Positions 3,449-17,470 of a stretch of 64,000 nt of DNA are shown piece after piece. Location: assembly GCA_951406725.2 (NCBI GenBank), contig OX597826.1, positions 17,980,001 through 18,044,000 on the forward strand, in the 5' to 3' direction. Each line of letters opens with the position of its first letter. The first letter of the stretch is position 1. The translations under genes and the position numbers were made by a program. Below the pieces are notes generated by a model. The model was not told the origin of the DNA. It saw nothing but the letters and a program-made list of their open reading frames with translations, and did no database searches. This DNA is from Octopus vulgaris (Eukaryota).

Positions 3449-5091
3449 AAGTACAGGTGAGGATATAACCCTCAGAGGGATAAAAATAGCCAAGATTAGA
3501 CTGGTTGAATACCTAACAATATAGGTGCATGCATATGTATTATCATTTCCAGGCTTGCATGGGTCAGATGAAATTTATTGACGCAGATGCCTTTCCTGTC
3601 ACCAACACTCAACTGTTTCCAAACAAGGTAATATATTCCTAAGGCCAGGCATGCTTTACATGGAAGATTGGAAAAGAACACCCTTACTTTTTTGACAGTA
3701 ATGCTCATTTTCAACCTATTTCTTTACTACCCACAAGCACAGAGAGGACAAGCAAGGACAGACAAATGAATTAAGTTGATTATATTGACCCTAGTGCGTA
3801 ACTGGTACTTATTTAATCAACCCCAAAAGGATGAAAGGCAAAGTCGACCTCGGCGGAATTTGAACTTAGTGTCAAGACAAGAGGACCCTCACACATATAC
3901 ATACACACATATATAAGATAAGCTTCTTTCAGTTTCTACCAAATCTACTCACAAGGCTTTAATTAACTCAGGATTATAGATGTTTGCCCAAGGTGCAACT
4001 TAGGACTAAACTTGAAACTTTATGGTTGGGAAGCAAGCTTGTCATCCACATAGCAATGCCATTATATTCTTATAAACAAATAGATACTATCAAAGCATTG
4101 TTGTATATCTGGATGGTCTTCCTGTTGCAAACCCTTGTTTATCAAATAAGTTTTCATTGAACCAACTCACCTTTAAAAACACAGAGCTACTGGATGATTT
4201 ATTGACAGAGGAATATCAACAAACATTACCGTTTGTAGCTTATCATTTTGTTTTATACAGACACACCAAACATATGTACACATGAATACACATACACACA
4301 CACACACACACATACACACACACACACACACTTTAATAATCTATTAATAATTAAACAAATGATTACGTTACAAAGGATAAACTGTGAAAAGATTAATTAA
4401 ACAATCTAATTCTAGCTCAGATTTACAAAATGGTATTTTAAGTTTGGAATCATTTCAAGCTTACATTCAAGTTTCAAATTAAAAGTTTAAGTTTGTTACC
4501 AAATATTGTTAAATTTAGGAGCATGTCTAGTTAAAGGAGATTAATTAAAGGAGATTATGTGCTTGAGTCATAGATTCTTGAGGCATTACCCACAAGTTTT
4601 GGTTTTTCTGACTTTTTAATGGATTCTTTTTTCCCTTCTTTCTTTTTATCCCTTTCATTCTTCTCTCCCTCCCTCCCATTGACTTATGATAAACGCTTCT
4701 GCTTTGTTCAGGTTCAACAAATATTTGATCTTTTCAACAGGAGACGTTGGCTCTCTTATAACATGAACTCTAACTGAGCATACAGCTACTTGGTTTCCTT
4801 CTGTTACATTTTGGTGCTTTGACCTTTTGTTTCAATCAAGGCATGTTTCTTAAACTTTATTTATTAGCATTTATTTATATACTCTTTTACTTGTTTCAAT
4901 CATTTTGACTGTAGCCATGCTGGAGCACCACCTTTTAGTTGAACAAATTGACCTCAGGGCTTAATTCTTTGTAAGACTAGTACTTATTCTATCAGTCTTT
5001 TTTTGCTGAACCACTAAGTTACAGGAACATAAACACACCAACATCAGTTGTCAAGCGATGGTGGGGGGGATAAACACAGACACACAAATAC

Positions 5092-9133: not shown

Positions 9134-10418
9134 CATCATTTAACATCCGTTTTCCATGCTAGCATGGGTTGGACGGTTCGACCGGGGTCTGGTAAGCCAT
9201 GGAGGCTGCACCAGGCTCTAGTCTGATTTGGCAGTATAGTGGGTGTTTTTACGTGCTACAAGCACAGAAGCCAGAGCAGGCTGGCAAACGGCCATGATCG
9301 GTTGGTACTTTTATGTGTCACTGACACGGACGCCAGTCAGCCGGCGCTGGCATCTGCCACGTTTGGACAGTGCTTTTTACGAGTCACCAGCACGGGTGTC
9401 TTAATTACAATTTCCTATATATACATATATGTACGATGGACTTCTTTCAGTTACCATCTCCAAAATCCACTCACAAAGCTTTAGTCAGCCTGAAGCTATA
9501 GTAGAAGGTGCCATGCAGTGAGACTGAACCTGGAACCATGTGGTTGGGAAGCAAGCTCTTATCACACACCCACTCATGTTTTATTTTTTAAATTTTTATT
9601 TTATCTGTTTTAGTCATTAAACTGTGGCCATGCTGGTGCACCACTCTGAAGAACCCCCAGCTAAATGAATCAACCTCAATACCATTTTTTTTAAAGATTG
9701 GTACTTATTTTATCAATCTCTTTGCTGCTGAACCACTAAGTCATGGGAATGCAAACAACACTGGCCATCAGGTAGTGGTGAGGGACAAACACAGAGACAC
9801 AAACACACACACATGAGGTAGAGAAGTAGCGTTCTCTCTGTCCCTGAATCTGAATGAGTGCATATGCTGGGAGTAGCTTCCCTTGAAGTCATTAGATATC
9901 ATACCCGTATAGTGCTTAGTAATGTCACCGGATGGTGTATGGGTGGCTCTGTATACTACAGCCCTTAAGAAGCAAGATCCTTCTATTATATATATTATAT
10001 ATATATATAATATATGACAAGCTTCTTTCAGTTTCTGTTTACCAAATCCACTCACAAGGCTTCGGTTGGTCTGATGCTTTAGTGGAAGACATTTGCCCAA
10101 GGTGCCAAGCCATGGGACTGAACCTAAAACCATCTGGTTGGGAAGCAAACTTCTTACCATATAGTTACACCTGTACCTATATTAAGAAAATATCTTTTTA
10201 AAGTCGTTAAGTATTTAAAAGAATTATTCAAAACAGAAAATGTTACAAACCTTCCAGAAAGAAATTTTCATATAGTGTGTATTTTGTTTGTAAGCACTTT
10301 CATTCATGTATTTAAAAAGTTGAACAATATTTACACACAAAATGCACAATAAATGAAAACTTCTTTCCCAAAGGTTTTTGACATTCTGCTTTTTAAATAT
10401 ATATATATATATATATAT

Positions 10419-11600
10419 AATTAATTAATAAGGGTGAGAGAATTAGATACTAATTTAATAGCATATCTATTCAACACCAAGTGGCCCAGTGCCTCGAGAA
10501 ACCTGGATTATTATAATATTTTATAATATATTATAATATTTTATACAAAAATAAATATAAGAGAATGGTCACTATGTGGCTCATTCTAGCACTAGAAAAT
10601 CCAAAAGGTTTCAACCACAAAAATACATGTTTCCTATGAAAGTCAGTACGATTGTTAGCTCACACGAACAGGGCAAATAAAAAATAACAAAAATACAGAT
10701 TATTTTGGGACAATTGTTTCGCTATTAATGAATTAAATGTAATTTTACTTACAAAAAACCCACTTGTAGCTCCTCAGCCAAAACTATCTGGATGAAATCC
10801 ACTCAATCACACGCCAGATTTTACCATAACGATAAATACATGTGTGGTTCAATTGATTACATCCGACGTTATAATTCAAATGCCCTTACCAACAGCGCGC
10901 CAAACTTTCACGGAAACAAATACTACATTTAGAAATAAATGTAGCATAATTATAATTAATTAATAAGGGTGAGAGAATTAGATACTAATTTAATAGCATA
11001 TCTATTCAACACCAAGTGGCCCAGTGCCTCTTTTGGATTTTCTAGTGCTAGAATGAGCCACATAGTGACCATTCTCTTATATTTATTTTTGTATAAAATA
11101 TTATAATATATTATAAAATATTATAATAATCCAGGTTTCTCGAGGCACTGGGCCACTTGGTGTTGAATAGATATGCTATTAAATTAGTATCTAATTCTGT
11201 CACCCTTATTAATTAATTATAATTATGCTACATTTATTTCTAAATGTAGTATTTGTTTCCGTGAAAGTTTGGCGCGCTGTTGGTAAGGGCATTTGAATTA
11301 TAACGTCGGATGTAATCAATTGAACCACACGTGTATTTATCGTTATGGTAAAATCTGGCGTGTGATTGAGTGGATTTCATCCAGATAGTTTTGGCTGAGG
11401 AGCTACAAGTGGGTTTTTTGTAAGTAAAATTACAATTGTCCCAAAATAATCTGTATTTTTGTTATTTTTTATTTGCCCTGTTCGTGTGAGCTAACAATCG
11501 TACTGACTTTCATAGGAAACATGTATTTTTGTGGTTGAAACCTTTTGGATTTTCTAGTGCTAGAATGAGCCACATAGTGACCATTCTCTTATATTTATTT
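10419..11600. mobile_element. Fold-back retrozyme-like / non-autonomous Penelope element (family B), 535-nt monomer
   Basis: Left arm 10419-11030 repeats with period 535 (10431 = 10966). Right arm 11031-11600 is inverted, starts at a different phase and has period 512 because of a 23-nt deletion. (TA)n on both sides. Confidence 0.9.
10696..10790 (-). ncRNA. Type I hammerhead ribozyme, intact catalytic core
   Basis: Minus strand: CAGATAGTTTTGG-CTGAGGA-GCTA-(42 nt)-TAGC-GAAA-CAATTG-TC-CCAAAATAATCTG. GUC triplet, predicted cut between 10709 and 10708; palindromic stem III. Confidence 0.9.
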
Positions 11601-11620
11601 ATATATATATATATATATAT

Positions 11621-12458
11621 TTACATCTAATATAGGGTAATATTTTCGAAAAAATCTTATCAGTGGCCAGCATATTAAAAAATACCTTTGAAGGCTAAAT
11701 TTATTAACAACTTATAAACAAAGGCAAAAACAAAAAAATTCCAATGCCAAATATGCCGAAAATCGTCAATAACCATATAATTCATCACTATAAGCATGTG
11801 TCTCGAAGCAAGCCGACAGAAATTTCTAAAAAATTTCATTATTACCGAATCGGCCCCAATTTCTGAGTTAATTCATAAAGAATTTTCTCATCGTCAGTGG
11901 TAAATACGATAAGAAATAAATGAGATACTTACTTGCACCCATGGAAGAAGTAGCCACCAAGTCATGAGTACACTTAAGTACCCCCAAATATATCCAAAAT
12001 AGAAATTCTACAGCACTCCCTGAGATACATGTGATTTTTCGAAAATTTTATCCTATATTAGATGTAAATTTAATACTATTCACTTCCAGACTCACTCACT
12101 CTATGAGAATTTTCAGTCCGATCATACGCGTCTCGGGTGTGCTGCAGAATTTCTATTTTGGATATATTTGGAGTATTTAAGTGTACACATGACTTGGTGT
12201 CTACTTCTTCCATGGGCGCAAGTAAGTATCTCATTTATTTCTTATCGTATTTACTGCTGACGACGAGAAAATTCTTTATGAATTAACTCAGAAATCAGGG
12301 CCGATTCGTTAATAACAGAATTTTTTAGAAATTTCTGTCGGCTTGCTTCGAGACACGTGCTTATAGTGATGAATTATGTGGTTATTGATGATTTAAGTCT
12401 ATTTTCGGCATATTTGGCATTGGAAGATTTTTCTTTTGTCCTTGTATATAAGTTGTTT
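11621..12458. mobile_element. Fold-back element (family C), circularly permuted about 470-nt monomer with degenerate hammerhead
   Basis: About 11706-12016 is inverted relative to about 12131-12457, and about 12032-12067 is the reverse complement of 11621-11656. CTGACGA 12257-12263, GAGA-CACGTG 12350-12359. (TA)n flanks. Confidence 0.8.
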
Positions 12459-12475
12459 ATATATATATATATATA

Positions 12476-15230: not shown

Positions 15231-15372
15231 CTGTCAGAAATTGAAAGAATATTTAATCAATACACACAGAATCAACATAGGAAATATGGTCAACATAATA
15301 AAACATTAGGTAAACTCATAATAAATGCAGATAATGAGCATAATAAACGTAAACAAATATTGATAATTGGAT

Positions 15373-15795
15373 ATAAATATAAGAGAGTGACCACCGTGTG
15401 GTCTACTCTAGCACTAAAAATAGATCCGCAAAGTTTCAGCCACAAAAGAAATTGTTTCCGTTGAAAGTTAGCACTACTACCAGCGCAAATGAACAGGGCA
15501 AATAAACATAATAAAATAACAAAATGTAGATTAATCTACATTTTATTATGTTTATTTGCCCTGTTCATTTGCGCTGGTAGTAGTGCTAACTTTCAACGGA
15601 AACAATTTCTTTTGTGGCTGAAACCTTGCGGATCTATTTTTAGTGCTAGAGTAGACCACATGGTGGTCACTCTCTTATATTTATGTATAAAATGTGTCGT
15701 AATCTGGGTTTTTTATGCACTAAGCCACTTGGTGGTAAATGGATGTGCTATTAAATTAGTACCCAATTTTCTCACCCTTATCGGTTGATAATTGT
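15373..15795. mobile_element. Fold-back copy of a diverged family B element in the last intron; palindrome 15373-15684, centre 15532/15533
   Basis: Near-perfect inverted arms; colinear similarity to 10431-10702 (tctagcacta, gaacagggcaaataaa, ctattaaattagta, cacccttat). Confidence 0.85.
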
Positions 15796-17470
15796 ATATA
15801 GATATTTAACATATTTTGACCAAATCGGCATAATAAACAATCAACATCATAATGTATTTTATAAACTACATTATTAATCTTAAACTTGGTGGTGGCACTC
15901 TGTTCTGCAGTATACAGAACAAACACCGATGCTCTGGTAATTTTGCCATTTCAAACAATCCTTTCTATTATAGGCACAAGGAGGGGCTAGTTGATTACAT
16001 TGACCCCCAGTGCTCAAATGATAGTCATTTTTGCCAACCCCAAAAGAATGAAAGGTAAAGTCAACCTTAGTGGAACTTGAACTCAGAACATAATGACATG
16101 AGATACTGCTAAGCATTTTGTCAGGCATGCTAATGATTCTGCCAGTTCACCACCATAATAAATATTCCACTATAAATATGGTGTATCAGGGAACAGATTG
16201 TAGATGTGCAACGAAAGATTTCAGTTGTAATTGTAATAAATATATGATACCACTACAAAATTTGAACAAGTGAATATAACTGTACATGTGTATTTCAAAC
16301 TGATATCCTGACTCTCCCCTAATGCAATTATAAATGACATTTGTCCACTAAAGCAGAAGTGAATTATAATGTATATACAATATAAAAACATAAAAATATA
16401 AATTATACAAAAATATATAATTCTTAAAATGTATATAAAAAAATTGCAAAAATGTTGCAATACTATATATATATATAGTGGTAATAAATAGATATAAATA
16501 CATTAAAATGATTTATAGTAATAATGATGATGATAATGATGATTGTTGTCATCAACATGGTACAAGGCCAGCAATTTTGAATCATCATCATCATCATCAT
16601 CATGATGATATAATATATATATTTCTGCTATATTTGAGAAATTTTGATCGGGTCAGAGAGGTCGCTCTTTTTAAAGATGAAATACCTGGTAGCATACTTT
16701 TAAAAGTTGAGATAAATCTCTGTTGAGCGAAAGACCGAAACGCTGGCTGTTGAGGAGTGCATTGTCTGAGGGTAGTGGTAGAAACATTACCATGACCAGT
16801 CATCTTATTTGTTAATGATGATCAGTGATGTGTACATTTTGGTGAGACAAGTAGATTACAAATGTACAGCTTTGGAAAACATTGTTGTCTGAGTAGGTCT
16901 TGGGGCTGGATGTAAAATGAACACCATCAAGTTCCAAACCAGCAGAAGTGGGGCCAACACCATCACCACTACTTCTGTCATCAGCAATGTGCTCTCCCTC
17001 CTCCATCATCATCATCATCATCACTGTCGTCGTTGTCACCACCACCATCACCACCACCAACAACAATGTTTTATGCCCACTTGTGTGTATTTATTGAGCA
17101 AAAACACCTAAAGCTCCATGATGCTCTGGCAGGGGGTGGTGGCGACCCCTGTTGTACTCTTTCGCTCCAACTTTAACTCACTCTTTCTTCCTGCTTCTTG
17201 TCCCCAACTTCCTTGGACTTCTCCCAAATGCTCAACAAACAAACAAACCACCAACAACAATGTTTTATGCCCACTTTTCCATGTTAGCATGGGTTGAATG
17301 GTGTTTCTGAGGTGGCATTTTATTGCCACATGCTCTTCTTACTGCCAACTGTTTCACTCACCTTTTACAACATACTGGTTGCATACTGGTGTGTCCATTC
17401 TAAAACTGGGATACACATAGCAACAAAGCAGTAATGGAAAAAAGATGAAAAAAAGAAGAAAAGCATTTAC

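Follow-up and report, generated by a model that had tools for sequence, protein, structure and literature searches.

A young, protein-less hammerhead repeat in Octopus vulgaris with the insertion footprint of a Penelope-like element

A 64,000-nt stretch of the Octopus vulgaris genome (assembly GCA_951406725.2, contig OX597826.1, positions 17,980,001 to 18,044,000; hereafter "the window") harbors two inverted arms of a 535-nt, hammerhead-bearing unit. The explanation that we consider the best, and hold with fair but incomplete confidence, is that this unit is a protein-less hammerhead repeat inserted into (TA)n by a borrowed Neptune-type reverse transcriptase (RT)-endonuclease, with a 535-nt RNA circle as the probable template. 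Direct observations on genomic copies comprise the family itself, the fixed ends of its copies, the pairing of two end sites (A and B), the single haplotype within each insertion, and read-through of the predicted cut site.

The features of the locus (10398-11619) are collected in the table. The left arm has a period of 535 nt, with 10416-10495 repeated at 10951-11030 at 100% identity; the period of the right arm is 512 nt (11030-11095 repeated at 11542-11607). The arms are 98-99% complementary to one another and join over a single nucleotide at 11030. When a 23-nt deletion in the right arm is left aside, they mismatch at only 3 of 564 compared positions. An initial sequence-only reading had described head-to-head arms that each exceed one monomer, with (TA)n on both flanks and no ORF, and each of these elements was reproduced: the longest stop-free stretches around the unit (GC = 0.31) are 42 aa in the sense direction and 66 aa in the antisense. 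Both arms point outward in the RNA sense; the flanks thus hold the 3′ ends, which is where reverse transcription would start.

Table. Features of the retrozyme locus and of a related copy in the window
Feature	Position	Strand	Remarks
Left arm	10416..11030	-	1.15 units; RNA-sense 3′ end is site B (10416); bears the tail
Right arm	11030..~11600	+	~1.11 units of template; RNA-sense 3′ end is site A (~11600); without tail
Single complete 535-nt unit	10416..10950	-	
Tail	10416..10549	-	~131 nt separating priming sites A and B
TCACCCTTAT	10428..10437	-	Immediately ahead of site B; retained in 3/3 retrozyme families and in the tail end of the young Neptune-type element
Intact type I hammerhead motif	10696..10790	-	CUGAGGA at 10777-10771; predicted cut after GUC at 10709
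Right-arm hammerhead remnant	11372..11450	+	23 nt, including GAAA, absent at ACA 11432-11434
(TA)n target, left	10398..10415		
(TA)n target, right	11600..11619		
Inverted copy of sister family 2	15368..15804		70-75% identical; truncated just past the cut site; A/B ends alike

A second repeat adjoins the right (TA)n. This fold-back element (11616-12467) has arms that are ~83% alike and is separate from the retrozyme; it includes an inner 38-nt copy of its own left end (12035-12072) and displays high depth in public runs. A motif-plus-stem scan located no hammerhead in it.

The hammerhead of the left arm comprises CUGAGGA, GAAA, stems I and II, a short stem III with the palindromic CAAUUG, and GUC. 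Its predicted fold has a z-score of -4.0, which none of 200 shuffles equaled, and it was the sole match of the motif-plus-stem scan over the whole window. Motif and fold sustain the earlier type I assignment, on which an Rfam search was silent at E<=1. In the right arm, the deletion noticed in the initial reading is indeed present: 23 nt, including GAAA, are gone between two ACA words, and the remnant no longer folds as a hammerhead (z = -1.5). The deletion junction is private to this locus among all loci fetched. We propose that the loss occurred in one arm, during or after copying. Elsewhere in the family, the hammerhead core is intact in 132 of 148 passes through the unit. Both core and stems are kept across three families that are ~30% apart; in stem I, three of the six pair positions changed on both sides between families, i.e. 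in a compensatory manner, and the base of stem II carries a mismatch in family 3.

How widespread is this unit? In the 2.8-Gb genome, one exact 26-mer from it returned 914 matches and another 262, while controls returned none; the ORF-less unit is present at least 914 times. From these matches we sampled the first 60 loci on the list of one pattern and 38 more from the other. The copies range from stubs up to arrays of 5.2 and 6.7 units, and the tandem and inverted ORF-less monomers noticed at the outset thus recur in hundreds of copies. Two sister families (units of ~490-507 nt, 65-76% identical) are colinear with the first along the whole unit and have a hammerhead and an end pattern like its own. 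The third retrozyme family, which was recovered from loose ends of runs, yielded 30 exact matches. The median nearest-neighbor divergence is 0.5%, with an identical neighbor for 18 of 112 copies, and the window copy and its nearest relative disagree at 2 of 479 sites; judged by these comparisons, the 535-nt family is young.

Segmental duplicates (L077, L076 and L273) were excluded from the counts and L062 was retained; residual duplicates persist in the haplotype comparison and first end sample (L076), in the second end sample (L273), and in the 78-arm set described below (both). These four loci (G000:C1) represent one insertion that segmental duplication has made fourfold; L076 keeps the inner junction but divides the length differently between its arms, as if the center had flipped. 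A single-arm copy, L099, is flanked by a 9-nt direct repeat, a possible target-site duplication.

The ends of the arms proved to be the most informative part of the copies. With phase 1 defined as the first base after the predicted cut site, the outer (RNA 3′) ends cluster at two sites, A (phase ~154-162) and B (~286-295). The first sample contained 45 ends at A, 41 at B and two elsewhere (n = 88). In the second (n = 57), 29 were at A and 27 at B; the odd end was clipped by the edge of its locus and was later resolved as A. The sequence-only reading had posited arbitrary start phases. With 86 of 88 first-sample arm ends at A or B, this is incorrect: starts are fixed and only the inner (5′) ends are arbitrary in phase, although the two arms do differ in phase, as had been stated. 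Moreover, the two sites occur together. Once segmental duplicates were removed, 42 of 45 two-arm copies paired A with B, one of the 42 having been resolved after the other 41; the others were one B+B, one B+other and one complex copy, and no A+A copy was found. In the first sample, the pairing held for 25 of 26 copies (one duplicate included; p = 4e-7 against 50%). Thirty loci that derived from a query biased toward site B were excluded from the pairing count. The inner joins overlap by 0-2 nt at 34 of 53 two-arm loci. Each of the priming sites lies ~8-11 nt past a pyrimidine run ending in CTTAT (10428-10437 and 10557-10561, minus strand); with such a run ahead of both, a single signal may exist in two versions, A and B.

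This end pattern has a precedent. Penelope insertions are described as inverted, 5′-truncated copies in which a tail of 30-40 bp frequently marks just one end (PMC8557442), and the tail asymmetry has been traced in vitro to two initiation sites (PMC11167929). The A/B asymmetry is this known tail-on-one-end footprint, with an unusually long tail: ~131 nt, vs. the 30-40 bp published for Penelope. The inverted, 5′-truncated anatomy with a one-ended tail that marks EN+ Penelope-like elements (PLEs) is that of the 42 A+B copies, and the target was (TA)n or AT-rich at the junctions inspected. As a control, we examined Neptune elements of the same genome. In a young family, a tail was paired with no tail in 8 of 8 inverted copies; the same was true of 3 of 3 inverted copies from two other families. 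The Penelope-type insertion suggested in the initial reading is thereby corroborated. Because unequal arm phases are ordinary Penelope tail/no-tail asymmetry, also evident in 8/8 Neptune copies, they are not, by themselves, evidence of a circle.

The two arms copy overlapping template, as they pass each other's start sites: among 41 pairs, the B arm extends through site A in 36, the A arm continues around through site B in 17, and both arms are longer than one unit in 6. These observations bear on the proposal that PLEs are not involved at all, the locus being the product of LINE twin priming, of a Helitron or MITE-like DNA mechanism, or of an assembly chimera. Twin priming does generate 5′ inversions in L1, and the junction at this locus is that of the assembly. 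However, the overlap in template, the ends fixed in the PLE pattern, the lack of a poly(A) tail, and the recurrence of the anatomy at 42 of 45 independent two-arm loci render such an origin very improbable.

What, then, was the template? At 17 polymorphic sites, discordance was 21/1049 within arms and 14/594 between the arms of a locus, as opposed to 41% between loci. These low values indicate that each insertion holds one haplotype. We next consider the predicted cut site. Of 78 arms that cover phase 76-101, 65 extend to a point 10 nt ahead of the cut, and those 65 all continue to 5 nt past it; only 2 of the 78 end within 6-7 nt of the site. Hence, arms cross the cut site without a pile-up, and a cleaved linear monomer is not the usual template. 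The uninterrupted reverse transcription implied by the initial reading is accordingly evident in 65 of 65 arms that reach the cut.

Individual alleles allow a closer look at how the laps of an array were copied. In a comparison of 112 of several hundred loci, 22 locus-private alleles were present in all copies of their locus, and 14 of these span different laps; given the number of loci compared, some "private" alleles may be rare subfamily alleles. At positions that both arms read, 38 of 44 lap-specific variants occur in one arm only and 6 are in register. By our reading, a single one of the six is a clear non-consensus allele: the private allele of L088, found in the first lap of both arms. 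Taken together, the private alleles that extend across laps and the lap variants confined to one arm favor repeated copying of a single unit. The largest insertion seen, L332 (G000:C1:176053300-176063200), has arms of 4.7 and 6.7 units and is a mosaic at two sites; at one of them, a U4-to-C change in the core is present in 9 of its 12 hammerhead passes, in a pattern that is unlike between the arms. L088 and the mosaic L332 imply that some insertions came from multimeric or mixed templates, or underwent conversion later.

These two loci lend weight to an alternative that we regard as possible, at perhaps one chance in a few: with the element and the class of helper unchanged, what is copied is an uncut transcript of a homogeneous array, either linear or a multimeric circle, and the hammerhead only trims it or is dispensable for insertion. 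In L088, a non-consensus allele is in register, and L332, the longest array, has a mostly mutated core. There is also experimental precedent: the anole Poseidon protein used unprocessed RNA in vitro and ribozyme mutants still inserted (PMC11167929), and 8 of 9 Xenopus dimers were described as lacking cleavage (10.64898/2026.07.22.740005). Nevertheless, an uncut template fits poorly with the one-arm confinement of 38/44 lap variants, with one clear in-register allele set against 14 every-lap private alleles, and with the conservation of the hammerhead core and stems across the families. From these sequence patterns, a circle appears to be favored over an uncut multimer as the template.

In fold predictions, the sense-strand circle outdid both its shuffles (z -2.6 to -5.6) and the antisense circle for 5 of 5 units. 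In one run guessed to be RNA (no listed run is on record as RNA), we encountered a single 565-nt contig that matches the unit plus 30 nt in one piece, with 3 differences. This would be the length of a closed assembly loop at 31-letter words, and a tandem array, in DNA or in RNA, would give such a contig just as readily as a circle. Contigs from such runs were set aside as evidence of expression: they covered the unit in fragments, and the neighboring repeat was covered too.

We then sought an enzyme that could serve the family. GIY-YIG matches are abundant in the genome and belong to RT-GIY-YIG elements; an ORF with RT plus GIY-YIG is absent from the unit and was found only in separate elements. 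Among these, the candidate helper is a very young Neptune-type family, with at least 25 copies at full score over 563 nt among the matches listed. It has intact ORFs of 446 aa and 784 aa, the latter encoding RT-GIY-YIG. The Neptune/Nematis group is defined by RT, a CX2-5CxxC linker and GIY-YIG at the C terminus (PMC8557442), and the candidate exhibits this order, with a linker read by eye as CX4CxxC. Its tail ends in TTTTCACCCTTAT. Among the retrozymes, families 1 and 2 have TCACCCTTAT just ahead of site B, and family 3 has all 13 nt there. Shuffling gave a shared word of at least 10 nt 494 times in 200,000, and 1 of 3726 background windows contained one; the chance of such a word is ~1% over the four families compared, with its matching position not counted. 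A three-family profile revealed no wider homology between the retrozymes and the candidate helper, and site A has no matching word. We therefore treat the helper link, which resides in one shared word, as a lead and not as proof.

Other candidates were discarded. Two further young PLE families (with ORFs of 781 aa and 574 aa) have different tails. A stem that seemed, by eye, to be common to the retrozyme and the helper's tail region was set aside, since it is disrupted in families 2 and 3, and a CTGATGA motif in loose ends turned out to be the flank of one duplicated locus. As a separate observation, two young Neptune-type families (L322-L324 on G000:C9, and L181-L190) have an upstream ORF (446 aa, and up to 479 aa). 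It lies in a different frame from the RT ORF, which it overlaps, and gave no Pfam match over the cut-off; this arrangement suggests a frameshift-linked ORF1.

Could the copies simply be remnants of a protein-coding element? In such a scheme, an autonomous Penelope-like element would have left them as 3′ stubs (pLTR plus tail), and later unequal crossing-over would have generated the arrays. The footprint is identical to that of PLE stubs, and a few arrays show the partial allele sharing that local recombination predicts. Yet the sequence beyond site B re-enters the unit, and never an ORF, in the arrays examined, and the three families are colinear throughout the unit. No pLTR homology to the three-family profile was detected in 79, and then 10, PLE loci found with the Pfam GIY-YIG model; the lone profile match (L197) is ~3 kb from an endonuclease match and is likely another old copy. 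Nor did we find a junction between unit and ORF: among 114 loci, three had a PLE protein match in their 400-nt flanks, all of them neighbors (an old fragment, a piece beyond (TA)n, and a 5′-truncated young Neptune). We consequently deem a stub origin improbable. The initial reading had set its proposal against an ordinary pseudo-LTR with an attached RT ORF and fixed ends; at the loci examined the unit is never joined to an ORF, while the outer ends are fixed.

Several loci that resembled such junctions were inspected and rejected. In L278, a putative retrozyme-Neptune chimera, the Neptune fragment is old (83% to its nearest relative). A (TA)n run separates the retrozyme from the Neptune piece in L291, and in L219, which resembled a unit-to-ORF junction, a family-3 copy sits inside the (TA)n that borders a Neptune end. 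L101 is a closer case: at 4262-4280, nothing but (ATT)n separates its site-A end from a similarly oriented, 5′-truncated copy of the candidate helper, and its retrozyme arm and the nearest relative disagree at 4 of 309 sites. As a later insertion is at least as likely, we did not count it as a chimera.

In the mechanism that we prefer, namely insertion of a protein-less repeat by a borrowed Neptune-type enzyme, transcripts of a genomic array would be cleaved at one hammerhead after another and closed by ligation into a monomer circle, in analogy to the retrozymes of coral and mussel. The Neptune protein would cut both strands of (TA)n. One DNA end would then prime at A and its partner at B, which lies 131 nt downstream, either on a single RNA or on identical ones; the ends are those observed, and the chemistry is presumed. 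From each, the polymerase would run a variable distance, the observed run lengths extending from a few tens of bases to 6.7 laps, and the two cDNAs would be fused head to head, in most cases overlapping by 0-2 nt. A bolder version, which we consider possible but not likely, is that the Neptune protein primes both ends of the (TA)n break at the two fixed sites of one closed 535-nt RNA and rolls around it from both sites simultaneously for at most ~7 laps, a 10-13 nt mimic of the helper's tail end being the sole sequence kinship between parasite and helper. If true, the genome would preserve in these copies the traces of two-ended rolling-circle reverse transcription on a viroid-like RNA, and both the enzyme and its recognition word would be named. 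If circles are absent, the family is an ordinary non-autonomous Penelope parasite.

The retrozyme literature cited here proposes, without demonstration, that PLE proteins copy retrozyme circles into genomes. The full Penelope junction signature, the youth of the octopus family, and an intact young candidate helper with a shared word make the questions of enzyme, template and tail testable in vitro, and a tail four times the usual length constrains the spacing of the two priming sites.

How does the octopus family compare with known systems? For the metazoan non-LTR retrozymes of coral, mussel and axolotl, circles and cleavage have been demonstrated, while PLE helpers and circular templates have been proposed (PMC7229834). 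Like these, the octopus units are ORF-less, low in GC and tandem, with one type I hammerhead each and no LTR, PBS or PPT. They differ in size (535 nt vs. ~170-400 nt), and for them cleavage and circularization are predictions. The main text of PMC7229834 describes neither inverted arms nor cephalopods; the present work locates both the fixed A/B ends and the (TA)n target. Our literature search, to which subscription papers and repeat databases were mostly external, found no cephalopod retrozyme and no tail/no-tail inverted retrozyme insertion. Vertebrate retrozymes are reported to derive from PLE pLTRs (10.64898/2026.07.22.740005). They share with the octopus family a co-occurrence with PLEs, a range from monomers to multimers, and a span of consensus lengths (51-972 bp) that includes 535. 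The evidence in that preprint is distribution and pLTR homology, its available text mentioning neither "tail" nor "junction" nor molluscs, whereas the octopus evidence is a junction footprint, with no pLTR homologue found. Also, octopus arrays appear to arise with the insertion itself and not through local amplification afterwards.

With EN+ Neptune-type elements, as described in PMC8557442 and PMC11167929, the octopus insertions have in common an inverted 5′-truncated copy, a one-ended tail, an AT-rich or (TA)n target, two initiation sites and a hammerhead upstream of those sites. Unlike them, they have no ORF, the tail measures ~131 nt instead of 30-40, and both arms can exceed one unit; the retrozyme hammerhead is also larger than the minimal ones in this genome's Neptune elements. 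The non-autonomous Chlamys MRC1 is likewise PLE-dependent and forms multicopy head-to-tail insertions, but elements of its type resemble an autonomous family at the 3′ end and belong to a clade without canonical hammerheads (PMC8557442). As far as these sources extend, both the retrozyme kind and its link to Penelope are already published (PMC7229834; 10.64898/2026.07.22.740005). What the octopus copies add is junction-level evidence for the Penelope mobilization of a young retrozyme family, along with a testable candidate helper.
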